The notes: a model not told the origin generated them from the letters alone. Numbered from the stretch's first letter, positions 1,916 to 16,201 are shown. The stretch: DNA of 64,000 nucleotides from Parvularcula sp. (GCA_002704915.1 PAIP01000034.1:5827-69826); one strand, 5' to 3'. Translations and numbers: made by a program.

Positions 1916-2782
1916 CTATTCGCTCGCCAGACGCAGCAAATACTGACCGTACTGGTTTTTCTTCAAAGGCTCGGCAAGCGCTTTTAACTGATTGCGATCG
2001 ATGAAGCCGGAGCGATAGGCGATTTCTTCCGGGCAGGATACTTTCAAGCCTTGGCGAGCCTCGATTGTCTGAACGAAATGCGCCGCTTCGAGAAGCGATT
2101 CATGCGTCCCGGTGTCGAGCCAGGCGAAGCCGCGTCCCAGCATCTGAACGCGAAGCGCACCGTCATTCATATACATTTCATTGAGCGTTGTAATCTCTAG
2201 CTCGCCGCGGGCGGAGGGTTTCACCTGTTTGGCGCGCTCGACCACGGTTTCGTCATAGAAATAAAGTCCTGTCGCGGCGAAGTTGGATTTCGGTTTCGCC
2301 GGCTTTTCCTCGATGGAAACGGCCTTGCCATCAGCGTCGAATTCGACGACGCCATAGCGTTCCGGATCCGTGACCTGATAGGCGAAGATCTCCGCGCCGG
2401 TTTCCAGCGCGGCGGCGTCGCGAAGCTGGCGGGTAAGGCCCTGCCCATAAAAAATATTGTCCCCAAGAACGAGCGCGCATTTGTCGCCGGCAATGAACTC
2501 CTCGCCGATGATGAATGCCTGGGCGAGCCCGTCCGGCGAGGGTTGTGCGGCGTAGCTGATCTTCAAACCCCAGTCGGAGCCATCGCCGAGCAGACGTTCG
2601 AAGGCTGGGCCATCTTCCGGCGTCGTGATGACAAGGATGTCGCGGATCCCAGCGAGCATGAGCACGCTCAAAGGATAATAGATCATGGGCTTGTCATAGA
2701 CCGGCGTGAGCTGTTTGGAGACGCCTTTGGTCACCGGGTAAAGCCGCGTGCCTGAGCCGCCGGCGAGAATGATCCCCTTCAT
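1916..2782 (-). CDS. rfbA: glucose-1-phosphate thymidylyltransferase
   Basis: The N-terminus [18 protein letters not shown] and the full-length match to RmlA/RfbA support the call. Confidence 0.95.
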
Positions 2783-3645
2783 TGCGCGTGTCCTTCTTGT
2801 TTCAATGCAGCGATGACGCGGCGCAGTTCCTGACGCCAGTCCGGCTGGCCTACGCCGAATTCGCGCTCGATCTTGGCGCAGTCGAGCATGGTGTTCAGCG
2901 GCCGTTTCGCAGGCGTTGGATAATCTTCGGTTTTGATGTGCGAAACCTTTACGGGAAGCTCGGCTATCTCGAAAATTTTCTCCGCGAAGCTGGCCCAGCT
3001 GACCGCCGGCGCCGACTGAAAGTGATAAACGCCCGCGCCCGGCGCGCCGCGATGTTTCTTGCCCGCGATTGCCATGATGGCCCGGGCGATATCGGCGGCG
3101 GCGGTGGGTCCGCCAATCTGGTCGGCGACGATGGAGAGCGCATCGCGTTCTCCCGCAAGACGCAGCATGGTTTTGACAAAATTCGCGCCATATTCGGAGA
3201 ACACCCAGGAGGTGCGCAGGATGACGGCGCTGAAATTGGCTTTCAGCACAGCCCGCTCGCCTTCCAGCTTCGTGCGGCCATAAACATTCAACGGATTGAC
3301 GGGCGCCTGTTCATCGAGACGGCCTTCGGTAGCGCCGTCGAAAACATAATCGGTGGAGATGTGTATGAAGGGAACGCCGGCTTCCGCCGCGGCGGCGGCC
3401 ATTTCTTCAGGCGCTTCGCAGTTGAGGCGTCTGGCAGCGCCTTCATCGCTTTCCGCGTTGTCGACGGCAGTGTAGGCGGCGGCGTTGATGACGATTCCGG
3501 GCTTTTGAGTTGCGATGGCGTCCCGCGCCGCGCCGGGGCGCATCAAGTCGGCTTCGTCGCGGCCAAGCGTGACGACAGCATCGCCGCCGATGTCTTTCAG
3601 CGCGCGCGCGACCTGTCCGTTTCTGCCAAAAACCAGCATGCGCAT
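2779..3645 (-). CDS. rfbD: dTDP-4-dehydrorhamnose reductase
   Basis: A 288-aa protein with an RmlD-like layout (STDYVFDG motif). Its stop overlaps the rfbA start by 4 nt. Confidence 0.9.
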
Positions 3646-3676
3646 GGATGCGCCTCGCCCTTCTGATGCGTATTGC

Positions 3677-4732
3677 TTACGCGCTTTGTTTCAGACCCTG
3701 CCGCTTAGCGGTGTCGAAGCCGCGCTGGCGGATCTTTTCCCACCAGTCGCGATTGTCGAGATACCATTTCACCGTGTCACGCATGCCTTCCTCGATCGTG
3801 TGCGCCGGTGTCCAGCCGAGTTCGCGTTCGATCTTGTCGCAATTAATGGCGTAACGCTGATCATGGCCGGGGCGGTCCGCGACGAAGTTGATCAGGCCTT
3901 CATGCGGCGCGTGGTTTGAGTCCTTTAGTTCTTCGTCGAGCACTTTGCAGATCGTCTTGACGAGATCGAGATTGGTGCGTTCCGCGCGCCCGCCGACATT
4001 GTAGGTTTCGCCGGGCTTGCCGTCGCGCGCCACAAGAAGCAGCGCTTCGGCGTGGTCTTCCACATGCAGCCAGTCGCGGATCTGGTCGCCCTTGCCGTAA
4101 ATGGGAATGTCTTTCCCTTCGAGCGCGTTGATGATGACCACCGGAATCAGTTTCTCCGGAAACTGGTAAGGTCCATAATTATTGGAACAGTTAGTGACGA
4201 TGACCGGCAGGTCGAACGTCTCGCGCCATGCCCGCGCCAGCATGTCGGATGACGCTTTGGCGGCGGAGTAGGGCGAATTGGGCTGATAGGGCGAGGTTTC
4301 TGTGAATTCGCCTGTGGGGCCCAGCGATCCGTAGACTTCATCCGTGGAGATATGGTGGAACCGGAAGTCCTTCGGCGCGCCGCCATTTGCGACATAACCT
4401 CTTGCAGCTTCGAGCAGCGCATAGGTTCCGATGATGTTGGTCTGGATGAAGGCGCCAGGACCGTCAATGGATCTGTCCACATGCGTCTCCGCGGCGAGGT
4501 TCATCACCGCGTCTGGTTTGAATTCGTTCATCAGGCGCGACATGGCGTCAAAGTCGCAGATGTCTTCCTGCGCGAAGCGATATCGCGGATTGTCGGCGAC
4601 CATGGCCACATTATCCGGATTGGCCGCATAAGTGAGCTTATCCACATTGAGGACATCGTCGCCCCGCTCAATCGCGCGGCGGACAACCGCCGATCCGATA
4701 AAGCCGGCGCCGCCGGTAACCATAAGCCTCAT
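3677..4732 (-). CDS. rfbB: dTDP-glucose 4,6-dehydratase
   Basis: [14 protein letters not shown] Rossmann fold, the YSAAKASSD catalytic motif and RmlB length. Confidence 0.95.
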
Positions 4733-4899
4733 CTGTCTCTCCTTGCCGTCCTTTTGCGGGTGTCCTCAGCGGCATCTTGCGCGTAGAGCAGCAAGAATTG
4801 CGCCGCAAAGGTTCCCCTCACGGGTGTCTAACACGGCTCGGGGCAGTTTGAAGCAATCGCCGGGTAAAAAGGGGTTAACACCGTCGGGTGCATGCGGGC

Positions 4900-5643
4900 T
4901 TAGCCAGCCACGGCGGTGTAAAGGTTGAACAGGCTGAGCCCGCAGATGACGACGCCAACCAAGGCGGTGAGCGTTCGCCTCGGCAAGCGTTTGGCTGCAA
5001 TCGCGGCGAGCGGGGCTGCAACCACACCTCCAATAACGAGGCCGAGCGCCGCTTTGCCGAAAGTCGGGCCGAGGGCCGCGAAAAAGGCGACCGAGGCGGA
5101 TATGGTGACGGCGAATTCGGCGAGGTTGACTGTTCCGACAGCGATAGCGGGTGCTGCGCCTTTCGCAAGAAGGTTTGAAACGACGACCGGTCCCCAGCCG
5201 CCTCCGCCGGATGCGTCGGCGAAGCCCCCGACAAAGCCTAAAAGGCGGACTTTCTCGATTGGCGTCGGCGCCTTTGGCGGCTTCAGCGCCTTGGAAATGA
5301 CCACAAGGCCCATAACGAACAGGTAAGCGGCGATCAGCGGTCTGGCGGCGTCGGCGTGAATAAAGCTGATAAAAAACGCGCCCAGGACTGCACCAGTTGA
5401 GCCCGCCAGCGCGAGGCGGCGGAAGAGGCGCCAGTCGATGTTTCTGGCGATGGCGTGCGATGTTCCGGAGGCGGCGGTGGTGAAAACCTCAGCCACATGG
5501 ACATTGGCGCTGGCTATAGCTGGCGGTACGCCGAGAAAAACAAGCGCGGTGGTTGAGGCGACGCCATAGGCCATGCCCAAAGCGCCGTCGATCAGTTGTG
5601 CGACAAAACCGACAGCCACGAAGGCGAAAAAAGGATCGTCCAT
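4900..5643 (-). CDS. TauE/SafE (DUF81) family sulfite/anion exporter, membrane protein
   Basis: A 247-aa, Gly/Ala-rich, multi-TM protein with the internal duplication typical of the TauE/SafE family. Confidence 0.75.
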   Translation of the reverse strand: MDDPFFAFVAVGFVAQLIDGALGMAYGVASTTALVFLGVPPAIASANVHVAEVFTTAASGTSHAIARNIDWRLFRRLALAGSTGAVLGAFFISFIHADAARPLIAAYLFVMGLVVISKALKPPKAPTPIEKVRLLGFVGGFADASGGGGWGPVVVSNLLAKGAAPAIAVGTVNLAEFAVTISASVAFFAALGPTFGKAALGLVIGGVVAAPLAAIAAKRLPRRTLTALVGVVICGLSLFNLYTAVAG

Positions 5644-6133
5644 TATCCGGAATGGTGCTGAAAAAATTTAATCTGCGGCGCCTCTTGTGAGTTTGCCGGC
5701 GCGAGCGCAAATAATTCCTACCCTGATTACCTTGCCGTCTCAAGGTTCGGCGCCTGAAGAATTCGGGGAGTTGGTTGAAGCTTCTTTAGACGCGTCCGAC
5801 AAGGGGAGGCCGCAACCGCCTCCCCTTGCGTTATTGTATGAGATTGCGCCGGCCTTCTACCGGCTGCGCGCAATCGGCGGCGGCGGCGCTTCTCTCCCCC
5901 GATGCCGCCGCCGTTTGAGCTCCGAGTTTGAATTCGTACTTCGGGCGGGTCGGCGCTTAACCCATGCGCGCGCTTGCAGGGAAAGCCGCGGGAATGGCTT
6001 GGCGCGTCGTTCTGGAAGCGGGCGCAGCCGAATTGCAGCGGGTCAAGTTGTGCCTCAGAAAAGCGTTAATGTGACGATCGAGCACATTGCTCTCGGTCGC
6101 TCGCAGGCTTTCCAGGCAAGCAAAGAATTGCAT

Positions 6134-6182
6134 GAAGTGGTGGGCGCACGTGGTTTCGAACCACGGACCTCTACCATGTCAA
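6134..6182. repeat. attL: 49-bp copy of the 3' end of tRNA-Val plus 4 flanking nt
   Basis: It is identical base for base to 16123..16171. The flanking bases differ on both sides (t6133 vs g16122; c6183 vs g16172). Confidence 0.9.
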
Positions 6183-6266
6183 CGCATGAAAAACCTAGCG
6201 AGGACAAATAGTTAGCTGTGCAACTGGAGACAACTGAGCGCATGAGAAACAAGGAGATAGCAGCAC

Positions 6267-6788
6267 ATGCGCGCCAATTGCGAGCCAGTGTCCGGCTCAA
6301 GTCATGGCAACCGTGCCAAAGTGGCAACAACCACGTTGCTGCCGTTGAGCGGCGGATGCCCGAAGCAGGTTAGTGAGAGGTGGAGGAAATATGCGAGAAC
6401 GGCGGATGCCGCCGCCGTCCTCGCGATGCCGGCCGATCACAGCTCAATTGATCTTACCTGGCGAAATGCTCCCGATCTTGTAGCCGCATTCGATGCGGTT
6501 GAGCAAGCGGGCCGCGTCCTGAATATTTTCCGGGAAACGCTCGACGGCGTGTCATCGGACAGGCGCAGCGCGCGCGAACAGTTCCGGCGCTTCCCCAAGG
6601 ATCGCGAGCGCCTGCAAACGCTGACGCGCTCGGCTGCCCATTTCTACATGGCGTTTGCCCAATCGGCGCTTGATCAGTTGACCGTCGGGCGCGTTCTTAA
6701 CATGTCTTTCGATCAGCTCGGCGAACTGATCGTCATGGCGGTCGATATTCTTGAGCACACGTCGTCGCAGGCGGTGCGCTATGGATGA
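6267..6788 (+). CDS. hypothetical protein (first gene of the island; start uncertain)
   Basis: AAGGAG lies 10 nt upstream of ATG 6267, and ATG 6426 is an alternative start. The stop overlaps the next start (ATGGATGA). I recognise no family. Confidence 0.4.
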   Translation: MRANCEPVSGSSHGNRAKVATTTLLPLSGGCPKQVSERWRKYARTADAAAVLAMPADHSSIDLTWRNAPDLVAAFDAVEQAGRVLNIFRETLDGVSSDRRSAREQFRRFPKDRERLQTLTRSAAHFYMAFAQSALDQLTVGRVLNMSFDQLGELIVMAVDILEHTSSQAVRYG

Positions 6789-7512
6789 ACTCTTTTCGAT
6801 CATCCGCGAGCCTGAATATGTGGCTTTGAAGTCCCTGTCTGCCAATGCCTGCAAGGCGCTGGTAGCGATCAAGTTTGGCCAACGTGACGGGGCGGACATT
6901 TCGTTCGGCGTTCGCGACCTTGAAGCCTTCGGTATGAAGAAAAGCGCCGCGGCTACAGCCTTGAAGGAGCTGATCGATGCCGGTTTAATCACCGTGCAAT
7001 GTGACAGCAGCTTCGGCGCGAAGCGCAAGAAAAGAGTTTGGCGCGTTGTTCACACAAGGGCCGAGAAGCCGGAATTACAGTCCGCCAGGGCGGACACGGG
7101 GAGGCGTGATAGTCCGCCACGGCGGACTATGCCCCGTCCTACAGTCCGCCAGAGCGGACAGGTTGTCGATCTACAGTCCGCCAGGGCGGACACTACTAGG
7201 AGACTTCCTTCGACTTCGTCTCAGGAAGTCGAAGGAGAAGGAAGTCGGCAACAGGCTTCGGTGAACCCGGCGCTCAGGGATCAGCAAAACGTCAGCAAGA
7301 AGGCCGCAGAGGCCCTACGCCTTTCCGAGCGAGCCTGTTGGGACCTGGCTGGAGGCCCCTCAGCCTTCGGCGAAATGGCTTGGGAATGGGAGCGGGGCGA
7401 AATCAGCACCTCCCAACTGCGGGCAAAACTCGCGGATGACGATGATGGCTCTGGAAGGGCTCCGCCCGGGACGCCCTATGTCGCCTCAGTCGCAATCGGC
7501 GGAGCATGCTGA
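6781..7512 (+). CDS. putative DNA-binding / replication-initiator-like protein containing the iteron array
   Basis: The N-terminal part (MDELFSIIREPEYVALKSLSANACKALVAIKF...LKELIDAGLITVQ) looks like a winged-helix/HTH domain. The central linker is encoded by four palindromic repeats, and the C-terminus is acidic. The function is inferred. Confidence 0.5.
   Translation: MDELFSIIREPEYVALKSLSANACKALVAIKFGQRDGADISFGVRDLEAFGMKKSAAATALKELIDAGLITVQCDSSFGAKRKKRVWRVVHTRAEKPELQSARADTGRRDSPPRRTMPRPTVRQSGQVVDLQSARADTTRRLPSTSSQEVEGEGSRQQASVNPALRDQQNVSKKAAEALRLSERACWDLAGGPSAFGEMAWEWERGEISTSQLRAKLADDDDGSGRAPPGTPYVASVAIGGAC
7080..7191. repeat. Four 16-bp dyads GTCCGCC-NN-GGCGGAC at an exact 32-bp period (candidate origin iterons or operator array)
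   Basis: The copies are at 7080-7095, 7112-7127, 7144-7159 (one arm is AGCGGAC) and 7176-7191, counted directly from the sequence. Confidence 0.7.
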
Positions 7513-7886
7513 TGGTTTGCAAACCTCCCTCATTCGCGCCCCAAAGGGCTCCTGCAAAGCGTTTCGAGATTAGCGGCGACGCGAAGCGGCCAAGTTCGTC
7601 AAAGCGCGGCTATGACCGGAAATGGCGGCTCATCCGCGCGGCGTTCCTCAAAGCGCATCCGTTCTGCGACTGCGGCGCGCGAGCTGTTGAGGCCGATCAT
7701 CAAATTCCGTTGCGGCAAGGCGGCACGCATGCCTGGAGCAACCTCCGGCCTTTGTGCAAACCGTGCCACTCGCGCAAGACCGCAACCCGCGACGGCGGCT
7801 TTGGAAATCCAAAAAAATCGCTGGGGGCTACTTCTGTTGACCGCGCCCTTAGTCAACTTCCCGTTTCCACAAAACTCATCTTTTAG
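7506..7886 (+). CDS. phage HNH endonuclease
   Basis: CDCG...ADHQIPLRQGG...NLRPLCKPCHSRKT is an HNH/zinc-finger motif. The gene sits immediately upstream of the terminase genes, as in HK97-like cos phages. Confidence 0.85.
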   Translation: MLMVCKPPSFAPQRAPAKRFEISGDAKRPSSSKRGYDRKWRLIRAAFLKAHPFCDCGARAVEADHQIPLRQGGTHAWSNLRPLCKPCHSRKTATRDGGFGNPKKSLGATSVDRALSQLPVSTKLIF

Positions 7887-7899
7887 AAGGGGTTAGGTC

Positions 7900-8301
7900 A
7901 TGAGTAGACCAAGAACGCCAAGCAATGTGCTCGATCTTCGCGGCGCCTTCGACAAGAACCCGCAACGCCGGCGGGAGGATCCGAAAGTCGAAGCCGGTCT
8001 CGGCGAAGCGCCGGACTATTTCACCGATGATGAACGCAAGGTCTGGGCGGAAATCGAACAGTCGGCGCCGGAAGGCGTGCTCTCTCGCGCTGATCGCATC
8101 GCCGTCGAGATGCTGACTGACCTGATCGTCCGATTCCGGGCGCGCCAGCCGCTCAAAGCCGCCGAGCGCAACCACATGCTCAACCTGTTGAGCCGTCTCG
8201 GCATGACCGCCGCCGACCGGAGCCGCGTCGCCAAGCCCGATGACGGCGAAGATCAGCTCGACATCTGGGATGTTCTCGGCGCCAAGGGCGGGGCCGCATG
8301 A
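7900..8301 (+). CDS. terminase small subunit (P27-family-like)
   Basis: A 133-aa protein placed between HNH and TerL. The N-terminus (PSNVLDLRGAFDKNPQRRR) and the C-terminal LGMTAADRSRV resemble P27-type TerS. It overlaps TerL by ATGA. Confidence 0.75.
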   Translation: MSRPRTPSNVLDLRGAFDKNPQRRREDPKVEAGLGEAPDYFTDDERKVWAEIEQSAPEGVLSRADRIAVEMLTDLIVRFRARQPLKAAERNHMLNLLSRLGMTAADRSRVAKPDDGEDQLDIWDVLGAKGGAA

Positions 8302-9980
8302 ATATCGACCTCGCGGCATATGGGCGGGTTGCGGAAGACTACGCGCGCGGCGTTGCGTCGGGTGAAATCCCGGCCTGCAAGTGGCTGCGTCTCGCCGCGC
8401 AAGCGATGGTGCAGGATCTTGCACGTCAGGATGACGAGGCGTTCCCGTGGCGATTCGATGAACGGCGTGTCTGGCGCGCCTGCGTTTTCATCGAAAGCCT
8501 GCCCCATGTGAAAGGCTCATGGGCCGCGCGACGCGAGCTGATGCGCCTGCAGCCTTGGCAAATCTGGATCGTCGCGTCGCTGTTCGGCTGGGTGAGCAAG
8601 AAAACCGGACGCCGCCGTTACCGGCGGGCGCTGATTCTCGTTCCGCGCAAAAACGGAAAGAGCGCCCTTGCGGCCGCCATCGGCCTCTACATGCTTGCCG
8701 GCGACGGCGAGCACGGCGCCGAAGTTTTCGCCGGCGCAACCTCCGAGAAACAGGCCTTCGAAGTGTTTCGCCCGGCGCGCGCCATGGCGCAGCGGACGCC
8801 GCGAATGTGCCGACGTTTCAGTCTCGACCTTGGCGCAAAAAGCATCATCAGCGTCGAAAACGGCTCGCGCTTCGAACCGCTAATCGGCAAGCCCGGCGAC
8901 GGCGCGTCGCCTTCCTGCGCGATCATCGATGAATATCACGAGCATCCGGACGATTCGCTCGTCGAGACGATGCGGACCGGCATGGGTGCGCGCGATGAGC
9001 CGTTGCTGCTGATGATCTCGACTGCCGGCGACAATATCGGCGGACCCTGTTACCAGGCGATGCTTGATGCGCGTCACGTCCTCGAGGGAAGCGAGAAGGA
9101 TGACGGCCTTTTCGCTGCGCTCTATGGCCTCGACGATGATGACGACTGGACGGCGGAAGCCTCGCTGAAAAAGGCGAACCCGAATTTCGGCGTTTCGGTG
9201 TCCGCGGAATTTCTCGCTCAGGAGCGCGCCGATGCGCTGGCGAACGCCCGGCGCCAGGCGGTGTTTCAGGTGAAGCACCTCAACCGCTGGGTTGGCTCGC
9301 GCGCCGCGTTTTTCAATATGGAAAACTGGCGGCGCTGCGCTGATGACGCGCTTTCGCTCGATGCCTACCAAGGCAAGCGCTGCTATCTCGGCCTAGACCT
9401 CGCTTCGAAAAACGATCTCGCCGCCATCGGTCTCGTCTTCCCCCGTGACGACGGAACGCATGCGCTGTTCGCGCGCTACTATGCGCCGGAGGATGCGCTG
9501 CGCGGCCCCAATGGCGGGCGCTATCGACCATGGGTCGCGGAAAAGCGGCTCACGCTCACCGATGGCGCGATGATCGATCATGACCGCATCGGCCGAGATA
9601 TTCGCGACATGATGCGGCGTTTCGACGTTGCGAAGCTTGCTTTCGATCCATGGAATGCGACGGCGTTGATCACGCGCTTGATGAATGACGGCGCGCCCGC
9701 GCTCGAATTTCGCCAGTCCACAAAGAACTATTCCGAAGGGATGAAGACACTCGCTGCTGCGATTGATGATCGCAAGGTGATCCACGAAGGCGACGCGGCT
9801 CTTGCCTGGCAATTCGGCAATGTGACCGCGAAGCCGGACGCCGCCGATAACGTATATCCGCGCAAGGAAACCCCGGAATCGAAAATCGACGGCGCGATCG
9901 CCGTGCTCATGGCCTATTGCGTCGCCATCGCCGAAGAGGGGACGGCGTGCGCTCCCCTCGTGTTCTCTATTGCTGTCTGA
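8298..9980 (+). CDS. terminase large subunit
   Basis: A 560-aa protein with a Walker A-like VPRKNGKS motif, the IIDEYHE Walker B/coupling motif and a Terminase_1-type layout. Confidence 0.92.
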   Translation: MNIDLAAYGRVAEDYARGVASGEIPACKWLRLAAQAMVQDLARQDDEAFPWRFDERRVWRACVFIESLPHVKGSWAARRELMRLQPWQIWIVASLFGWVSKKTGRRRYRRALILVPRKNGKSALAAAIGLYMLAGDGEHGAEVFAGATSEKQAFEVFRPARAMAQRTPRMCRRFSLDLGAKSIISVENGSRFEPLIGKPGDGASPSCAIIDEYHEHPDDSLVETMRTGMGARDEPLLLMISTAGDNIGGPCYQAMLDARHVLEGSEKDDGLFAALYGLDDDDDWTAEASLKKANPNFGVSVSAEFLAQERADALANARRQAVFQVKHLNRWVGSRAAFFNMENWRRCADDALSLDAYQGKRCYLGLDLASKNDLAAIGLVFPRDDGTHALFARYYAPEDALRGPNGGRYRPWVAEKRLTLTDGAMIDHDRIGRDIRDMMRRFDVAKLAFDPWNATALITRLMNDGAPALEFRQSTKNYSEGMKTLAAAIDDRKVIHEGDAALAWQFGNVTAKPDAADNVYPRKETPESKIDGAIAVLMAYCVAIAEEGTACAPLVFSIAV

Positions 9981-9990
9981 AAGGAATCCT

Positions 9991-10662
9991 ATGCCGCTCG
10001 CCGAAGTTGAAATCACCGATGATCCGTACACGACTTACATGCTGACCGACGCAGAACTCAAGGCAGCGGCCGCGCTGAAAGGGTTAGAAACGACAACCCT
10101 TGCCCAGCTTGCCCGCATTGGAGAGGGCGTTGTCGAAGCGATCTTGAACGCGCCGCAGGATGTAGAGGGAAACCGCCATCTCGCTAGGGCGAGCTATCGC
10201 GAAACGATCACTTTTGATCGCGACCGCCAGCACTACACGCTGGCGCGGCCTCCGGTGACGCTGACGGCGGTGACGCTCGACGGCATGGATCTCGAATTTG
10301 ACGAGCTGAGCCTTCATCCCTCGACGGGCCTTATCAGCCCGAAAAGCGGTATTTGGCCGTGTGGCGCGAAAGCGGTGTTCGAATATGCCGGAGGCTGGCG
10401 CACGCCCGCCCAGGCGGCCCAAGGCGCTGCCGCGAATTACGGGCCCGGCATGCCGTCGGCGATCATCCAGGCGGCCGTGCGCGGCGCGCAGATCGCCTAT
10501 TCGAGCCTTTGCCGCGAGGATCTTGGGGTGCGGTCATCCCGCGAGGCCGATGACGATGCCGGCGCCATCGAAACGGTCTACGCCGCGCCGCCGGCGCAAG
10601 CGGGGCAGGATGCCGAGATTTTCCGGTTGCTGGCGCCATGGCGGCGACTCGTTCTTTCATAG
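9991..10662 (+). CDS. putative head-tail connector/adaptor (gp6-like N-terminus)
   Basis: The position after TerL and the N-terminal segment (YMLTDAELKAAAALKGLETTT...EAIL...GNRHLARASYRETI) resemble gp6-type connector proteins. This is inferred only. The ORF could start at 9970. Confidence 0.45.
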   Translation: MPLAEVEITDDPYTTYMLTDAELKAAAALKGLETTTLAQLARIGEGVVEAILNAPQDVEGNRHLARASYRETITFDRDRQHYTLARPPVTLTAVTLDGMDLEFDELSLHPSTGLISPKSGIWPCGAKAVFEYAGGWRTPAQAAQGAAANYGPGMPSAIIQAAVRGAQIAYSSLCREDLGVRSSREADDDAGAIETVYAAPPAQAGQDAEIFRLLAPWRRLVLS

Positions 10663-10671
10663 GGGGGCGGT

Positions 10672-10899
10672 ATGAACGCAGATCGACGGCGGCGGCTTGA
10701 GCGGGTCTATTGGTCGTGTGTCGCAAGGCGTCGAGGCGAAGACGCCTCGATGGTGCGGCTATATGATGGCGGCGATTCGCCCCTCGGCTTGTCGGAGGAA
10801 GATGATCAGCGCCGGCAGATGCTTCGCATTTTGCTCGATAGCATTGAGCGGGACGAACGGATGCAGGCAGGACTGGAGGGCGCGAATGATAACGCTTGA
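10672..10899 (+). CDS. hypothetical small protein (75 aa)
   Basis: The ORF is tightly packed after the connector-like gene, and its stop overlaps the next ATG at 10886. Confidence 0.4.
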   Translation: MNADRRRRLERVYWSCVARRRGEDASMVRLYDGGDSPLGLSEEDDQRRQMLRILLDSIERDERMQAGLEGANDNA

Positions 10900-11074
10900 G
10901 CGGCTGGAGCGGTCCATGGGAACGCTGGCGGCCATAATCGAAAAGCATGGCGACGCGGCATGGCCCATCTTCGAAAGGCTGGAGCGCGAGCGCGACGCAA
11001 TTCTCGACAAGAAAAAGCGCTTGCGCGAAGCGATTGAGCGGGCCGAGGATGTTCAAGGGAGCGTCACGACATGA
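10886..11074 (+). CDS. hypothetical small coiled-coil-like protein (62 aa)
   Basis: An internal ATG of ORF 10697..11074 overlaps the upstream gene. Its ATGA overlap with the next ORF suggests translational coupling. Confidence 0.4.
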   Translation: MITLERLERSMGTLAAIIEKHGDAAWPIFERLERERDAILDKKKRLREAIERAEDVQGSVTT

Positions 11075-11265
11075 CAGATAAGGAAACTGAGAACCCATTT
11101 TCGAAATTCAACCAAGAGCCAAGGGCAATCTTGCGCGATTACGCCGAACTCCTCACGGCGGATCTGAAAGACATGCAAACGAAAGAACTGGTCCAAGCGA
11201 AAGCTTCGATAGAGCGCTTTTTAAAGCATGTTGATGCGGAGCTAGAGCGCCGAAAAGCACGCTGA
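11071..11265 (+). CDS. hypothetical small protein (64 aa), start of the AT-rich segment
   Basis: An ORF with an ATGA overlap to the upstream gene. Its composition is visibly AT-richer than the flanks. Confidence 0.4.
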   Translation: MTDKETENPFSKFNQEPRAILRDYAELLTADLKDMQTKELVQAKASIERFLKHVDAELERRKAR

Positions 11266-11343
11266 TTCACGGCCTTTGAAATGAAGCTGCGCCAACCACA
11301 CTCATTTGACTCACAAGAAAAGCCGTCCTCATGCTCGAAAAAT

Positions 11344-11712
11344 ATGAGCATTAGCGAATTAGAAAGCTACGCAGAGGCAATTAACAGCGCATACGCAAGA
11401 GCTGTGTCCGGTGTCATCGGGGCCGCATGCCATCTAAATGAGGCGAAGAAATCGCTAGCTCATGGGCAGTGGATTCCATTCTGTGAATTATTAGGACTGT
11501 CTCGTTTTCGGGCTGCGAAGCTGATCAAAATTGGATCGCACTTAGGCCTTCGAGCTTCTAAAAACGCCCGCTTCCTGCCTATTGATGAGGAAGTATTGTA
11601 TATCTTGGCGCAAATGTCCCTCTCAGATTTTGAGGAGGCGCTTGCAAAGAGCGCAATTACTCCAAAGTTGACGCGTGCTGCCGCAATACGTTTACGAGAC
11701 GGCTCCGCATAA
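11344..11712 (+). CDS. hypothetical protein, DUF3102-like (phage/plasmid-associated)
   Basis: LAHGQWIPFCELLGLSRFRAAKLIKIG resembles the HGxW..W/F...g.s.rtA core of DUF3102 proteins, from memory only. The ORF opens at 11281, and ATG 11344 is preferred. Confidence 0.45.
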   Translation: MSISELESYAEAINSAYARAVSGVIGAACHLNEAKKSLAHGQWIPFCELLGLSRFRAAKLIKIGSHLGLRASKNARFLPIDEEVLYILAQMSLSDFEEALAKSAITPKLTRAAAIRLRDGSA

Positions 11713-11784
11713 AAACTCAAATGTGTGAAATCAAGGGTCTCCGAACCCTGCCCACGATGCCCCCAGTATCAACTGGAGGCTTAT

Positions 11785-13050
11785 GTGACCCTGCGAGAAC
11801 TGAGAGAAAAACGCGCATCCATCGTCGCCGAGATGAGGGCCCTCAACGACAATCCGGAGGGCGAGGCGGGCGACCTTTCCGAACCTCAATCCAAACGATT
11901 CGATATTCTAAAGGGCGAGCTACAGCTCGTCGAAAAATCCGAAGAGCGCCAGCGCCTCGTTGACGAGGCGGACCGGCGCGCCGATGGCCGCCAGATCACC
12001 GGCGACGCCGATGCGGACTTCGACCGCGAATGCCGGTCATTCTCGCTCACGCGCGCCATCGCCGGCGCCGCCGGCCTCGATGTTGACGACGGCCGCGAAC
12101 GCGAAGTCGGCGCCGAGCTGAAACGCCGCGCCAAGGGTGCGTTCAAAGGCGTCGCCGTTCCCATGGCGGTTTTCGAAAAGCGCGTCATCACCACGGGCGC
12201 GCCCGTCGCCGGGCCCGGCGCCAACATCATCGCGACAGATTTCCGCGGCGATCAGTTTATCGACATTCTGCGCAACCAGTTGGTCACGCAAAAGCTTGGC
12301 GCGACCGTTCTCTCCGGCCTTGTCGGCAATGTCGATATTCCGCGGCTGAAAGCTTCGGCGGCGACGGGCTGGGTCGCAGAAAACGACGCCATCACGCCCA
12401 GCGATCAGCAATATGACAAGGTGTCCATGACGCCGAAACATGTGGGCTGCATCACTGAGTTCAGCCGCAATATGCTGATGCAGTCGACGCCTGACATTGA
12501 ACAATTGATCCGCAGCGACTTTGCGCAAGTCCTCGCCCAGGCGCTTGATGCTGCCGCGCTTGTCGGCGGCGGCTCGAATGAGCCGGACGGCATTCTCGCC
12601 ACAAGCGGCGTTGATACGTCTGTGTCCTTTGCCACGCCAAGCTGGGACGCCGTGCTCGACCTCATCAACATCGTTGATGAGGCGAACGCCATGGGTACCG
12701 GCTTCGCCATGCGCCCGCTGGCGGCGACGACCCTGCGCAAAACGCCGAAAGTCGATTCGACCGATAGTGTCATGGTCATGGAAAGCCCCGATAGTCTTGC
12801 GGGCTATCCCGTGGCGCGTACGACGCAAGTCCCGATCACCAGCGGCACGCCCGACACGACGGCCGTGATCTTTGCTCATTGGCCTGATTTGCTTATCGGT
12901 TACTTCGGCGCACTCGACATTCTCGTGAACCCTTACGAGTCTACGGCGTACAGCAAGGGCAATGTCAGCGTGCGCGGCATGCTGACGGCGGACATTCAGT
13001 TGCGCCATGTCGAAAGCTTCGCCGCCGCTGACGATTTTCCGGCGGAGTAA
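11785..13050 (+). CDS. HK97-family major capsid protein
   Basis: GGAGG lies 5 nt before GTG 11785. The N-terminus VTLRELREKRASIVAEMRALND and the overall layout are typical of the HK97 MCP delta-domain plus capsid fold. The ORF track opens at 11725. Confidence 0.9.
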   Translation: MTLRELREKRASIVAEMRALNDNPEGEAGDLSEPQSKRFDILKGELQLVEKSEERQRLVDEADRRADGRQITGDADADFDRECRSFSLTRAIAGAAGLDVDDGREREVGAELKRRAKGAFKGVAVPMAVFEKRVITTGAPVAGPGANIIATDFRGDQFIDILRNQLVTQKLGATVLSGLVGNVDIPRLKASAATGWVAENDAITPSDQQYDKVSMTPKHVGCITEFSRNMLMQSTPDIEQLIRSDFAQVLAQALDAAALVGGGSNEPDGILATSGVDTSVSFATPSWDAVLDLINIVDEANAMGTGFAMRPLAATTLRKTPKVDSTDSVMVMESPDSLAGYPVARTTQVPITSGTPDTTAVIFAHWPDLLIGYFGALDILVNPYESTAYSKGNVSVRGMLTADIQLRHVESFAAADDFPAE

Positions 13051-13055
13051 GAACG

Positions 13056-13592
13056 GTGACAGGCGCGCTTCAAAAGCGCTTCGCCGCGGAAATCCGCGCG
13101 GAAACCCGCGGCGGCGCCCGGCGTCTCGTCGGCTACGCCGCCCGTTACGGCGTCATCGCCGACATTGGCCCGTTCAAAGAGCGTATTTCTCCAGGCGCCT
13201 TTGCGGGTTCGGTCGAGGGGGGCGAGGATATTCTCGCCCTCCTCGATCACGACGCCTCGCGCGTGCTCGGACGCACGCGATCCAAAACGCTCACGCTTTC
13301 CGATGATGAGCGCGGTCTTTATTTCGAGATTGCAGCGCCGGACACAACGGCCGGCCGCGATGCGCTCGCGCTGGCGGAGCGCGGCGATCTCGGCGGCGCA
13401 AGCATCGGTTTCATTGTCGAAGAGGAAGCCCGCGACGGCGACGTGCGCGTCGTCAAGCGCGCGCGGCTTCTTGAAATTTCAGTTGTCTCGGCATGGCCAG
13501 CCTATGCCGAAACGACTGTAGAGGCGCGGCGCCTCGTCGCTGAGCATAAGCCGCGCCTCAACTCTCTCAGGCGCTTCCTGGAGACGGTGTAG
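13056..13592 (+). CDS. HK97-family prohead protease
   Basis: RRLVGYAARYGV...ERISPGAFA...ILALLDHD...VLGRT is typical of HK97 gp4-type (S78) proteases. Confidence 0.9.
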   Translation: MTGALQKRFAAEIRAETRGGARRLVGYAARYGVIADIGPFKERISPGAFAGSVEGGEDILALLDHDASRVLGRTRSKTLTLSDDERGLYFEIAAPDTTAGRDALALAERGDLGGASIGFIVEEEARDGDVRVVKRARLLEISVVSAWPAYAETTVEARRLVAEHKPRLNSLRRFLETV

Positions 13593-14819
13593 ATGGGGTT
13601 GCTGCGCCGCATAGCCGACAGGTTTGATCCACATGTCGAGCAACGGGCGGCGGTTGAGCCGTCATGGCAGGCGCTTGCCGGCGGCTCCGCTGACTGGACA
13701 GCATTGAAGGGCGCTGCGCCGATCCCGTTGACGCCGCGGCTCGCGGAAAATTTCGCGACGGTGACGGCTTGCGTTTCGGCCATCGCCCAGGCCATCGGTT
13801 CGCTGCCTGCATGGATCTATCGGCTCAACGATGACGGCCGCGAAGTCGATGACAAGCATGGCGTGGCGCGGCTGATCCGCGCTGGCGTCAATCAATATCA
13901 GTCCTGGCCGGAGTTTATCGAATGGCTGGTTTCGCAAGCTCTCTTGCACGGCAACGCCCTCGCTGAAATCAAAACGGACCGGAATGGCCGCGTGACCGAA
14001 CTGATGCCGCTGCCATGGCCGATGGTCACGGTTGTGCTGTTGCCGTCCGGGCGGCTTGCCTATGACGTTTCGGACATCAACACGCTATACGGCGGCACGG
14101 GGAAGGTGCGCCGGTTGCTTGATTCCGAAGTGCTGCATCTTCGCGACCGCACCGACGACGGCCTTGTCGGCCGCTCCCGTCTTTCACGCTGCGCCGGCGC
14201 AATTCGCCTTGGCCTGACCATGAGCGCTTTTTCGGAAACGCTCTATGACAATCGCGCAACGCCGTCTGGTGTGCTTTCGACGGATCAAACATTGTCGCCG
14301 GAACAGGGTGAAGCGTTGCGCGCCGCGGTACGAGAAGGCTGGCGCGGCGTTCGAAACGCCGGCGAACTTCTTGTCATGTCGAGCGGTCTCAAATTCACGC
14401 CGCTCACGATCTCGCCGGAAGATGCGGAACTGTTGTCGGCGCGGCGCTTTTCGACAGAAGAGGTCGCGCGGCTTTATCAGGTGCCGCCCCCGATCATCGG
14501 GATTTGGGACCATTCGACGTTCACAAATTCGGAGACGGCCGGCCGATGGTTCGCGCAGTTCACGCTATCGCCATGGATCCGCAAACTCGAAGAAGCCTTC
14601 CGGCGTTCGGTCTTTTCGTATTCGACGAAAACGACGCATGAGCTCGAAATCGATCTTTCCGGCTTCCTCCGGGGCGACGCCGAAGCGCGCTGGAAAGCCC
14701 ATGAAATCGCCGTCCGCAACAAAATCCTGACAACTGAGGAGGTGCGCGAGGTTGAAGGCTGGAACCCGCGGGGAGATAGCGCTGAGACTACGCCGGAAGG
14801 TGCGGAGACTGATCGGTGA
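13593..14819 (+). CDS. HK97-family portal protein
   Basis: A 408-aa protein with SLPAWIYR...HGNALAEI...SGVL...LSPEDAELLSARRF...EVARLYQVPP, which is typical of HK97-type portals. Confidence 0.9.
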   Translation: MGLLRRIADRFDPHVEQRAAVEPSWQALAGGSADWTALKGAAPIPLTPRLAENFATVTACVSAIAQAIGSLPAWIYRLNDDGREVDDKHGVARLIRAGVNQYQSWPEFIEWLVSQALLHGNALAEIKTDRNGRVTELMPLPWPMVTVVLLPSGRLAYDVSDINTLYGGTGKVRRLLDSEVLHLRDRTDDGLVGRSRLSRCAGAIRLGLTMSAFSETLYDNRATPSGVLSTDQTLSPEQGEALRAAVREGWRGVRNAGELLVMSSGLKFTPLTISPEDAELLSARRFSTEEVARLYQVPPPIIGIWDHSTFTNSETAGRWFAQFTLSPWIRKLEEAFRRSVFSYSTKTTHELEIDLSGFLRGDAEARWKAHEIAVRNKILTTEEVREVEGWNPRGDSAETTPEGAETDR

Positions 14820-15157
14820 GCGGTGTGCCTGTGCTTCCTGCGCTCTTGACGGAAAAGGAGGCTGCGGCGAGACTCCGCATTCACTTGGCCACGCTGCAAA
14901 GAATCCGGCGCCGTGGAGAAATCCGGTTCAAGCGCGTGGGACGTTCGATCCGTTATCGAGAAGATTGGCTTGCGGAATATGTTGAGCGTGACTCATGTCC
15001 AGAAATGACAAACCCGGTCAGTTCGGAGAATACTGGCTTTCACAGCGCTCAGGTTCGGAAAATTGGTATCGCACCTGGTACGAGCGGACTGCATCCGGCG
15101 ATAGACGCACAAAGCGCGAAAGCCTTGGCGTTGCAGACTTTGAGGAAGCCAAGCTAA
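14816..15157 (+). CDS. Xis/AlpA-like helix-turn-helix DNA-binding protein
   Basis: LLTEKEAAARLRIHLATLQRIRRRGEIRFKRVGRSIRY is an MerR/excisionase-type HTH. The GTGA start overlaps the portal stop. The ORF tail runs 163 nt into int in another frame. Confidence 0.6.
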   Translation: MSGVPVLPALLTEKEAAARLRIHLATLQRIRRRGEIRFKRVGRSIRYREDWLAEYVERDSCPEMTNPVSSENTGFHSAQVRKIGIAPGTSGLHPAIDAQSAKALALQTLRKPS

Positions 15158-16176
15158 AGCTCGCGCAATGGGTGATTTCTTTTGGGAAAACCGGCAAGCA
15201 GCGCGCAGAGGAAGTCTATCTCGGTCAGATTTTTCAGCGCTATTGGGTGCAGCACGCGCGACATCTTGGTGGCAAAGGCGCGGGTGTTCAGCGTAGGAAT
15301 CTTGAAGTGCTGACTGAATGTGTCGGCGATCTACCCGTCGCGGATTTCAAGCTGGCGCGTCAGCGCGAGCTAGTTGAGCATTTGCGAAGCGAACGCGAAT
15401 ATTCGACGGGATATATCCGCCGGATATTTTCCGCCGGTTTTGCGGCGATAAATTGGGCTTTCAAGAATGAAGAAATCGACAGGCCCATTCCAGCGTTGTC
15501 GCTCCCTGACAGCCCCCCAAAAGAGTATGTGGCGTCGATCGATGTTCTCGCGGCCTTTTGGGATTATCCAAAGCCCGATTATTTGCAGATGTATTACGTG
15601 TTGGCGCTCGCGACAGGTGCGCGGCCTAGCTCAATCGTCGCTCTTACAAAATTCCAATGCGATATTGACCGGAAGCTGATCAACCTCAATCCGCCCGATC
15701 ACGCTGAAACGAATAAGCGGCGACCCGTTGTGCCTATGTGCTCAACGGTGAAGCCGTGGATCGAAGCCTGTAAGACCGGGCCGCTTGTGACATCGAACGG
15801 ACGCACGTCGCTGGAAGACATTTTTGCGCCGTGGCGTCGGTTCAAACGCGAGGCGGGCCTTCCGGAGGCTTTCACACCCGCTTGCATTCGTCATACGGTC
15901 GCATCGGAATTGCGGCGGCGCGGCGTTCCCAAGTGGGATGTTGAAGGCCTGGGCGGATGGCGCAGCGGCGGCGGGCACACTGCCGAGCGTTACGCAAAGT
16001 ACGATCCGAACTATCTGAAAGCGGCGGTCGATGGAATTGACGCTCTGTTCGCTGACATTGCGAACGCCGCCGAAACAAGCTTATATCCACAGCGCGCGCC
16101 AGTTGCGCGCCAGTTGCCAGCGGAAGTGGTGGGCGCACGTGGTTTCGAACCACGGACCTCTACCATGTCAAGGTAG
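14995..16176 (+). CDS. int: tyrosine recombinase / phage integrase
   Basis: ARPSS...IRHTVASELRRRGV...GGWRSGGGHTAERYAKY carries the R..H-x-x-R..Y catalytic signature. The last 16 codons are encoded by the att/tRNA sequence. Confidence 0.9.
   Translation: MSRNDKPGQFGEYWLSQRSGSENWYRTWYERTASGDRRTKRESLGVADFEEAKLKLAQWVISFGKTGKQRAEEVYLGQIFQRYWVQHARHLGGKGAGVQRRNLEVLTECVGDLPVADFKLARQRELVEHLRSEREYSTGYIRRIFSAGFAAINWAFKNEEIDRPIPALSLPDSPPKEYVASIDVLAAFWDYPKPDYLQMYYVLALATGARPSSIVALTKFQCDIDRKLINLNPPDHAETNKRRPVVPMCSTVKPWIEACKTGPLVTSNGRTSLEDIFAPWRRFKREAGLPEAFTPACIRHTVASELRRRGVPKWDVEGLGGWRSGGGHTAERYAKYDPNYLKAAVDGIDALFADIANAAETSLYPQRAPVARQLPAEVVGARGFEPRTSTMSR
16123..16171. repeat. attR: 49-bp repeat forming the 3' part of the intact tRNA-Val
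   Basis: It is identical to 6134..6182. Confidence 0.9.
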
Positions 16177-16201
16177 CGCTCTACCCCTGAGCTATGCGCC
16201 C
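16127..16201 (-). tRNA. tRNA-Val (anticodon GAC), 75 nt with encoded CCA
   Basis: Hand-folded cloverleaf: GGGCGCA/TA/GCTC-AGGGGTA-GAGC/G/CTACC-TTGACAT-GGTAG/AGGTC/CGTGG-TTCGAAC-CCACG/TGCGCCC/A/CCA. Confidence 0.9.

Follow-up and report, generated by a model that had tools for sequence, protein, structure and literature searches.

We propose that a 9,989-bp island in a 64,000-nucleotide stretch of DNA from Parvularcula sp. (GCA_002704915.1 PAIP01000034.1:5827-69826; the whole stretch is called the window below) is probably a functional capsid-forming satellite, resembling in its design those phage-inducible chromosomal islands that form capsids (cf-PICIs) and propagating by a satellite mechanism, with its activities predicted from sequence. 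With other elements of ~10 kb from marine Alphaproteobacteria, found in metagenome-assembled genomes (MAGs) of the Parvularculaceae/Caulobacterales type, the island makes up a lineage not recognised before. Its head and packaging set is full but tail and lysis genes are missing, and its likeliest way of spreading is therefore on tails borrowed from another phage, as in the E. coli capsid-forming satellites. The kind, a capsid-forming satellite, is already known; the lineage, its host group, its minimal size and its replicon are new. The original prediction, drawn from the sequence alone, had suggested such a satellite for this interval, and all in-silico refutation tests have since favoured that reading.

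The island, its site and its genes

The island is enclosed by a 49-nt perfect direct repeat, whose right copy overlies the 3′ part of a tRNA-Val(GAC) gene, the sole tRNA of the window; outside the island the 64-kb window is housekeeping DNA. The response-regulator gene beside this tRNA recurs on other contigs; in two of them, a 1.33-Mb contig of GCA_041984225.1 (L068) and a Tara scaffold (L070), tRNA-Val comes immediately after it, and next come the TauE and rml genes that in the window adjoin the island on its left. A model empty site, built from the left flank of the window, one att copy and the right flank, is colinear with both for 2,211 bp (98.6% identity); their attB is unoccupied, with att present once in each (L068 5645-7859; L070 3071-5284). 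We conclude that the island is mobile, or was until very recently, and strains with these empty-site genomes would be suitable recipients for its transfer.

The repeats enclose 15 plausible genes, all on the + strand and with scarcely any intergenic space (Table 1), as originally described, and the start/stop overlaps then listed (6781/6788, 7506/7512, 8298/8301, 10886/10899, 11071/11074 and 14816/14819) are present in the table of open reading frames (ORFs). The Pfam scores of the capsid, protease and portal proteins (PF05065, PF04586, PF04860) are far over the cut-offs, and the capsid protein begins with a delta (scaffolding) domain of ~160 aa. No island ORF matches a tail, lysis or CI/Cro protein in profile hidden Markov model (HMM) searches of Pfam and PHROG or in a PADLOC run, which confirms the head-only set without tail, lysis or repressor genes, and as a positive control the same PHROG search detects a tape measure at 2e-119 in a related Cohaesibacter prophage. 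The small ORFs, for which the original prediction had advised a closer look, were searched for tail and lysis homologues by HMMs, two structure models and a hydropathy scan, and gave neither. In no island protein does the hydropathy of any 19-residue window reach 1.6, and therefore none is a holin-like membrane protein. Four of the small proteins, o75, o62, o64 and o143, are hydrophilic, with no membrane segment and no significant Pfam, PHROG or PADLOC match. The fifth, orf173, likewise has no match in Pfam, PHROG or PADLOC; a homologue search gave no function and only seven representatives among 1.84 billion proteins, and its AlphaFold2 (AF2) model (pLDDT 72) is a helical bundle with no Foldseek match below E 0.6; the gene evolves at a dN/dS of 0.20 against the relative L003. 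We conclude that the unassigned ORFs hide no tail, lysis or repressor functions.

The original prediction also took the close gene packing as a sign of intact, selected coding capacity, and the comparison with L003 (TerL 88% identical) bears this out. All 11 genes common to the two elements are full-length and free of internal stops, with no frameshifted orthologue, and dN/dS ranges from 0.04 to 0.41 at dS of 0.4-1.5, with int at 0.04; the shared genes are under purifying selection, as judged against a relative whose synonymous divergence is saturated. The lowest dS of the island (0.39) and its highest dN/dS (0.41) both belong to xis, as dual coding with int is expected to give: the two genes overlap by 163 nt (14995-15157) in different frames, an arrangement kept in L003, L006 and L008. 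The xis product is an HTH_17 protein adjoining int, and its match phrog_66 is labelled 'excisionase and transcriptional regulator'. The integrase ORF itself crosses the att core (16123-16176) and stops 5 nt past it in tRNA-flanking DNA, and on excision its predicted C-terminus would change from ...TSTMSR to ...TSTMSTHEKPSEDK. An ORF at 5687-6211 spans attL as the mirror image of int reading through attR. A scan for sigma-70 promoters and terminators gave no excess over shuffled expectation.

The statement that the island has no primase, helicase or polymerase stood, none having an HMM match in any island ORF; what had been overlooked was a putative replication module at 6781-7512. The rep coding sequence contains four palindromic iterons of ~19 nt (ACAGTCCGCCAGGGCGGAC type) at a spacing of exactly 32 nt, and these encode a low-complexity linker of Rep. 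Every relative has 3-4 iterons at the same position in rep, with a member-specific sequence, and across the Rep alignment the N-terminal DNA-binding domain is variable and the C-terminal domain conserved. The Rep orthologue of the relative L050 matches the replication-initiator family phrog_270 at 2.5e-5. The ORF and its iterons are therefore best read as a putative initiator plus origin. No P-like helicase loader was recognised in the island.

Table 1. Features of the island (positions are those of the window)
Feature	Position	Strand	Evidence and remarks
attL	6134..6182	.	left 49-bp att core, a duplicated 3′ fragment of tRNA-Val; perfect repeat of 16123-16171
orf173	6267..6788	+	all-helical, family-specific, function without assignment; translationally coupled to Rep
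Rep, putative winged-helix replication initiator (lambda O-like)	6781..7512	+	phrog_270 5.8e-4; phrog_678, phrog_391; MarR-type helix-turn-helix (HTH)
putative origin	7076..7191 (about)	.	four ~19-nt palindromic iterons within rep
HNH endonuclease, packaging machinery	7506..7886 (start may be 7512)	+	PF01844 1.8e-10; phrog_589 1.8e-23
TerS	7900..8301	+	phrog_83 1.5e-15; Terminase_4 2e-4, under Pfam cut-off
TerL, ATPase + nuclease	8298..9980	+	PF03354 2.4e-27; PF20441 1.4e-41; phrog_9 1.7e-171
head-to-tail adaptor, portal-proximal neck protein	9991..10662	+	phrog_442 3e-9; AF2 fold matches
o75, o62, o64 (75, 62, 64 aa), three small overlapping ORFs	10672..11265	+	hydrophilic, helical; no significant match
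o143, accessory gene in low-GC variable slot	11281..11712	+	weakly DUF3102-like: PF11300 1.4e-3, under cut-off
HK97-fold major capsid protein	11725..13050 (gene caller start near 11785)	+	PF05065 2.3e-38; phrog_617 6e-68
S78 prohead serine protease	13056..13592	+	PF04586 3.7e-38; phrog_80 4.4e-50
portal	13593..14819	+	PF04860 5.5e-90; phrog_12 2.8e-89
Xis/AlpA-type HTH_17 protein, excisionase and/or activator	14816..15157	+	PF12728 3.3e-11; phrog_66 4.2e-9
tyrosine integrase	14995..16176	+	PF00589 2e-11; phrog_1 8.7e-34; 3′ end through att core
attR	16123..16171	.	right 49-bp att core
tRNA-Val(GAC)	16127..16201	-	ARAGORN; integration target, left intact by att duplication

A recurrent family of ~10-kb elements

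A TerL scan of one genome per GTDB species gave 42 loci. Seven have a TerL at least 59% identical to that of the window, all in Caulobacterales, Parvularculaceae or unclassified alphaproteobacterial (or Pseudomonadota) MAGs, and the six whose contigs reach past TerL (L003-L008) match the layout of the window, Rep-HNH-TerS-TerL-...-capsid-protease-portal-(xis)-int. At the other loci (TerL at most 51%) the portal, where found, is downstream of TerL, immediately so in all but one. Portal scans of IMG/VR and the JGI metagenomes added 25 further small contigs, and wherever all three genes are present they run capsid-protease-portal along a single strand, in most cases with xis, int and a tRNA after them.

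The eight att-delimited elements use five tRNA targets (Val, Gly, Ala, Phe, Leu) and, like the circular contig L059, all measure 9.3-10.5 kb (Table 2); the three shortest att repeats (17-20 bp) are the least secure. All delimited relatives, across portal identities of 49-86%, have the same head-only content, and no tail, lysis or immunity module or remnant was found within the att-bounded 10 kb or in any delimited relative. Two checks advised in the original prediction thus came out in its favour: the same module does sit at tRNA-Val elsewhere (L003, L006 and L008; 10.1-10.5 kb, 49-52-bp repeats), and no delimited relative is contiguous with a tail module.

Table 2. The island and its delimited relatives
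Element	Target	Length	Repeat
window	tRNA-Val	9,989 bp	att 49 bp
L003	tRNA-Val	10,094 bp	att 49 bp
L006	tRNA-Val	10,202 bp	att 49 bp
L008	tRNA-Val	10,488 bp	att 52 bp
L050	tRNA-Gly	10,236 bp	att 49 bp
L079	tRNA-Ala	10,481 bp	att 20 bp
L058	tRNA-Phe	10,335 bp	att 17 bp
L052	tRNA-Leu	9,345 bp	att 19 bp
L059	no tRNA (circular contig)	about 10,080 bp	121-bp terminal repeat

The modules of the family are exchangeable, as in PICIs. Integrases that are 41-46% identical go with different tRNA targets. For replication most members have an O-like initiator, whereas L052 has another kind of O-like initiator and L059 a primase-helicase. The L052 Rep was rejected as a homologue of the window type, having no detectable homology to it, and so represents a different initiator family in the same role. 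Between TerL or the adaptor and the capsid gene there is a slot whose small genes are unrelated from one member to another. In the window, GC falls to 0.518 at 11001-12000 (o64 and o143), against about 0.60 elsewhere, and this interval, which carries unrelated genes in L003, L004, L006, L008 and L050, looks like an accessory-gene hot spot. Homologues of o143 occur in L004 (on the opposite strand), L048 and L050, and o75 and o62 are conserved in L003; neither in the window nor in its relatives did PADLOC recognise a known defence gene in an accessory slot.

Some members depart from the common form. L059 (1-10201, from IMG/VR), which is more distantly related, encodes an 816-aa primase-helicase, HNH, TerL, capsid, protease and portal with no integrase match, and may be an episomal or excised relative. 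L052 (= L076; 1505-9498) is permuted, with the order capsid-protease-portal-Rep(O-like)-HNH-TerL-int-tRNA-Leu, which is nearer to the published E. coli cf-PICI order; seemingly the genes keep one circular order in which only the position of the int/att module shifts. L005 (13064-15300), an eroded member at tRNA-Gly on a 585-kb contig, has no att repeat, a truncated capsid match, and matches of 35 residues to the protease, 144 to the portal and 232 to the integrase.

Proposed cycle and alternative explanations

The model that we favour runs as follows. Int and the Xis/AlpA-type protein would recombine the 49-bp att cores to release a 9,989-bp circle, a step to which the att repeats, int, xis and the empty attB point. 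Rep would bind the four in-gene iterons and replication would proceed with host enzymes, as for lambda O at ori-lambda. The capsid protein with its delta domain, the S78 protease and the portal are predicted to form a small procapsid. HNH, TerS and TerL would then cut and package one unit-length genome, presumably by a cos mechanism such as is known from HNH-dependent HK97-type packaging; the narrow 9.3-10.5-kb range of the delimited relatives fits a capacity limit. The adaptor would sit under the portal, close the head and present the docking surface for a tail. Finally, a helper encoded outside the window would provide the tail, probably the head-closure (stopper) protein, and lysis or release.

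The assignment of the adaptor draws on its AF2 model, which resembles neck or adaptor chains of T5/DT57C, RcGTA (6toa_C), Mycofy1 and phage 812 at E values of 3e-6 to 7e-4. A tblastn search with the adaptor against 50,697 phage records gave no match and therefore no helper candidate, and sequence searches of the PDB with the portal and with the adaptor profile returned no cf-PICI entry.

Several observations weigh against this model. Excision, packaging and transfer are predictions, and the family is represented solely in MAGs and metagenomes, with no member in a cultured strain. The 64-kb window holds no helper prophage. Within the island no repressor was recognisable, no head-closure or connector protein was recognised among the remaining ORFs, and a primase-helicase is absent from the HMM results. 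The Rep call for the window's own protein combines weak HMM scores with the iterons, and confidence in the adaptor model is modest (pLDDT 62, TM 0.3-0.4). Furthermore, the sister subgroup L006-L008 (TerL 63% identical, with the same att and tRNA-Val) has no recognisable adaptor, so that neck logic differs within the family, and these members may encode no neck protein at all. Lastly, the predicted attP junction, ...GCCAGTTGCCAGCG-[49-bp att]-CGCATGAAAAACCT..., was sought as an exact pattern in the contigs of the JGI metagenomes and in IMG/VR, and occurred in neither; this null is uninformative because the element itself has been seen only in ENA/Logan assemblies and may be absent from JGI and IMG/VR.

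Two sets of candidates were set aside. The Logan contig L002 was rejected as evidence for a circular form, as it begins within att. At the adaptor position of L006 (11711-12991) and L008 (11558-12874) there are unrelated proteins of 236-239 aa, one with a MerR/HTH_17-like N-terminus, and these were rejected as adaptors for want of adaptor homology.

The original prediction had named as its alternative a precise deletion remnant of an HK97-like prophage. On that reading the island is defective, deprived by deletion of genes for tail, lysis and immunity, and now inert or decaying. Its genes for head and packaging are indeed of the ordinary HK97 phage type, and decay of such elements does occur, as the visibly eroded L005 attests; but L005 also shows the appearance that decay takes in this family, and the window copy, without any such sign, is intact. 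Its att repeats are perfect, a near-identical genome has the site empty, the island has its own Rep/iteron replicon, and the head-only content is common to all delimited relatives, across the five tRNA targets and within one narrow size class. We reject the deletion remnant, which is unlikely, because of the empty attB, the recurrent architecture, the intact genes with their low dN/dS, and the capsid-protease-portal order, rearranged with respect to the prophage and the phage that were inspected.

In this region of the Alphaproteobacteria clusters of the RcGTA type are common, and the island could be a capsid-forming element that takes its tails and release from a host gene transfer agent (GTA) of this type, or joins free extracellular tails, with no infecting or resident phage involved. 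The adaptor model resembles the RcGTA neck chain 6toa_C at 1.2e-4, the RcGTA capsid and portal are matched in the PDB at 3.4e-6 and 5.9e-21, and E. coli cf-PICIs shed tail-less capsids which join free tails outside the cell. True phages are matched better, however (the best PDB match of the capsid is roseophage R4C, 8gta, at 5.4e-31, and the portal matches 9lbn at 1e-32), and any HK97-type protein would match RcGTA in this way; no GTA cluster is seen in the 64-kb window, and nothing ties the adaptor to GTA stopper or terminator proteins. We regard GTA dependence as quite improbable, and the bolder version of it, in which the island stands for an independent fourth lineage of capsid-forming satellites, the smallest at ~10 kb, with at most one neck protein and with tails and lysis from a host RcGTA-like GTA or free seawater tails, as highly doubtful. 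If true, the RcGTA-tail reading would join two alphaproteobacterial gene-transfer systems hitherto studied apart. That the island is instead a complete minimal virus, with a tail or delivery device in its unannotated small ORFs, is scarcely credible: five ORFs (orf173, o75, o62, o64 and o143) do have no assigned function, yet they total ~517 residues, predicted helical or hydrophilic, far below any known tail, give no receptor-binding, lysin or holin signal, and are the least conserved part of the family, swapped for unrelated genes in relatives.

Relation to known elements

A capsid-forming satellite remains the preferred reading, and the cf-PICIs are its obvious point of comparison. The prototype, EcCIEDL933, is from the Enterobacteriaceae (Alqurainy et al., preprint 10.1101/2022.09.08.507074; He et al., preprint 10.1101/2025.02.11.637232), and a cfPICI model is given by de Sousa et al. 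2023 (PMC10085698). By the published definition such an element measures 10-18 kb, has int and modules for both replication and regulation, encodes capsid, protease, portal, adaptor, HNH, TerS and TerL, and is free of lysis and tail genes. The island agrees in size, int and att, HNH-TerS-TerL, capsid-protease-portal, and the lack of tail and lysis genes, and it has a candidate AlpA/Xis-type regulator, a putative replication module of its own and a probable adaptor; it has no counterpart to a recognisable connector or to a primase-type replicase, in whose place stands the putative O-like initiator with in-gene iterons. SatelliteFinder types B and C tolerate one or two missing components (PMC10085698). 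Also shared are a variable accessory slot within the packaging module, exchangeable int/att and replication modules and, above all, the unusual capsid-protease-portal order, which is common to the island family and the proteobacterial cf-PICIs.

The differences are equally clear. At 10.0 kb the island is smaller than EcCIEDL933 (15.4 kb) and the cfPICI median (14 kb); its Rep is lambda-O-like where cf-PICIs have pri-rep; its neck has no recognisable connector; and its host is a marine alphaproteobacterium, not a member of the Enterobacteriaceae. Proteobacterial cf-PICIs are ordered 'capsid-protease-portal-head connectors' and then 'hnh-terS-terL', with int-alpA-rep at the left end (10.1101/2022.09.08.507074), whereas the island is a one-strand array with HNH-TerS-TerL-adaptor ahead of the head genes and xis-int last, after the portal, so that the order as a whole is not matched. 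Their packaging-module proteins are 50-90% similar to those of EcCIEDL933 (10.1101/2022.09.08.507074); the island capsid, the sole protein compared with an EcCIEDL933 counterpart (9gyi), falls outside this clade, with an E of 0.021 that comes from the coiled-coil delta domain only. An E. coli EDL933 chromosome region taken for EcCIEDL933 was discarded, as it held CP-933H and a P4-like element instead. The likeness to cf-PICIs put forward in the original prediction thus holds for the design, in gene set and triplet order, and not for family-level homology of the head to the E. coli cf-PICI. With a capsid that resembles that of R4C and not 9gyi, the island is cf-PICI-like in its working and not a sequence-level member of the enterobacterial lineage; most simply, it would be a further lineage whose head module was taken from alphaproteobacterial siphophages. 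At least three independent cf-PICI origins have already been argued (10.1101/2022.09.08.507074), which makes a fourth plausible, not proven. Reported cf-PICI hosts are a few Gamma- and Betaproteobacteria and Firmicutes, the elements being worked out only in the Enterobacteriaceae and otherwise identified by bioinformatics (10.1101/2022.09.08.507074; PMC10085698), in agreement with the original statement that they were characterised outside the Alphaproteobacteria, and full-text literature searches, whose coverage excluded the supplement of PMC10085698, found no paper describing an alphaproteobacterial one.

The classical PICIs and SaPIs, the VEIMEs (PMC9618062) and the PICMIs (PMC10803314) resemble the island as small tRNA- or site-specific islands with int, an excision or regulation gene, an iteron replicon and a need for a helper; they rely on the capsid proteins and TerL of that helper, whereas the island encodes the entire head and packaging set. 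VEIMEs do occur in marine Alphaproteobacteria, without capsid genes (PMC9618062).

The HK97-type temperate siphophages of Alphaproteobacteria, for example the Cohaesibacter celericrescens prophage (L014) and, closest by capsid (35% identity) of the isolated phages, Roseobacter phage CRP-406, share with the island a homologous TerL (up to 51% identical), portal (about 25-31%), capsid (up to 35%) and protease, and also HNH-dependent packaging. The phages, at 29 kb or more, are ordered TerS-TerL-portal-protease-capsid, after which come the genes for head-tail joining, tube, tape measure and fibres, whereas the island is permuted, tail-less and 10 kb long; the canonical order through the capsid gene, and the tails, were confirmed in the two inspected, the Cohaesibacter prophage (TerL 48%) and CRP-406. 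The replicon recalls lambda O and ori-lambda in having four regular, internally symmetric iterons in the initiator gene, between an N-terminal DNA-binding and a conserved C-terminal domain, and differs in that the sequence similarity of Rep is marginal (weak O-like HMM matches) and no P-like loader is recognised. With RcGTA the island shares an alphaproteobacterial host, small HK97-type heads and related portal, capsid and adaptor folds. GTAs carry genes for a tail but have neither int, att nor Rep, and the DNA that they package is taken at random from the host; the island differs in its site-specific integration, its replicon and a TerS/HNH set suited to specific packaging.

A conserved, selected and mobile family in marine Alphaproteobacteria extends the capsid-forming strategy to ocean bacterioplankton, the marine satellites so far described, VEIMEs (PMC9618062) and PICMIs (PMC10803314), being without capsid genes. 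It points to a further, probably independent, capture of a phage head module by a satellite in the same rearranged order. From the tight 9.3-10.5-kb size class one would expect a distinct small capsid, which could be sought in marine viromes; elements of this kind now stand in IMG/VR as 'viral contigs'. The family, with a head lineage of its own, a replicon of the lambda-O type and only ~10 kb of genome, also offers a natural minimal blueprint for a self-packaging DNA container.

Beyond attL, the left flank (2779-5643) carries a dTDP-sugar/rhamnose-type biosynthesis cluster, with epimerase, RmlD-like and NTP-transferase genes, and the gene of a TauE-family exporter. In L067, L069, L071 and L073 other genes stand beside the same tRNA, so that the tRNA-Val neighbourhood varies among genomes.

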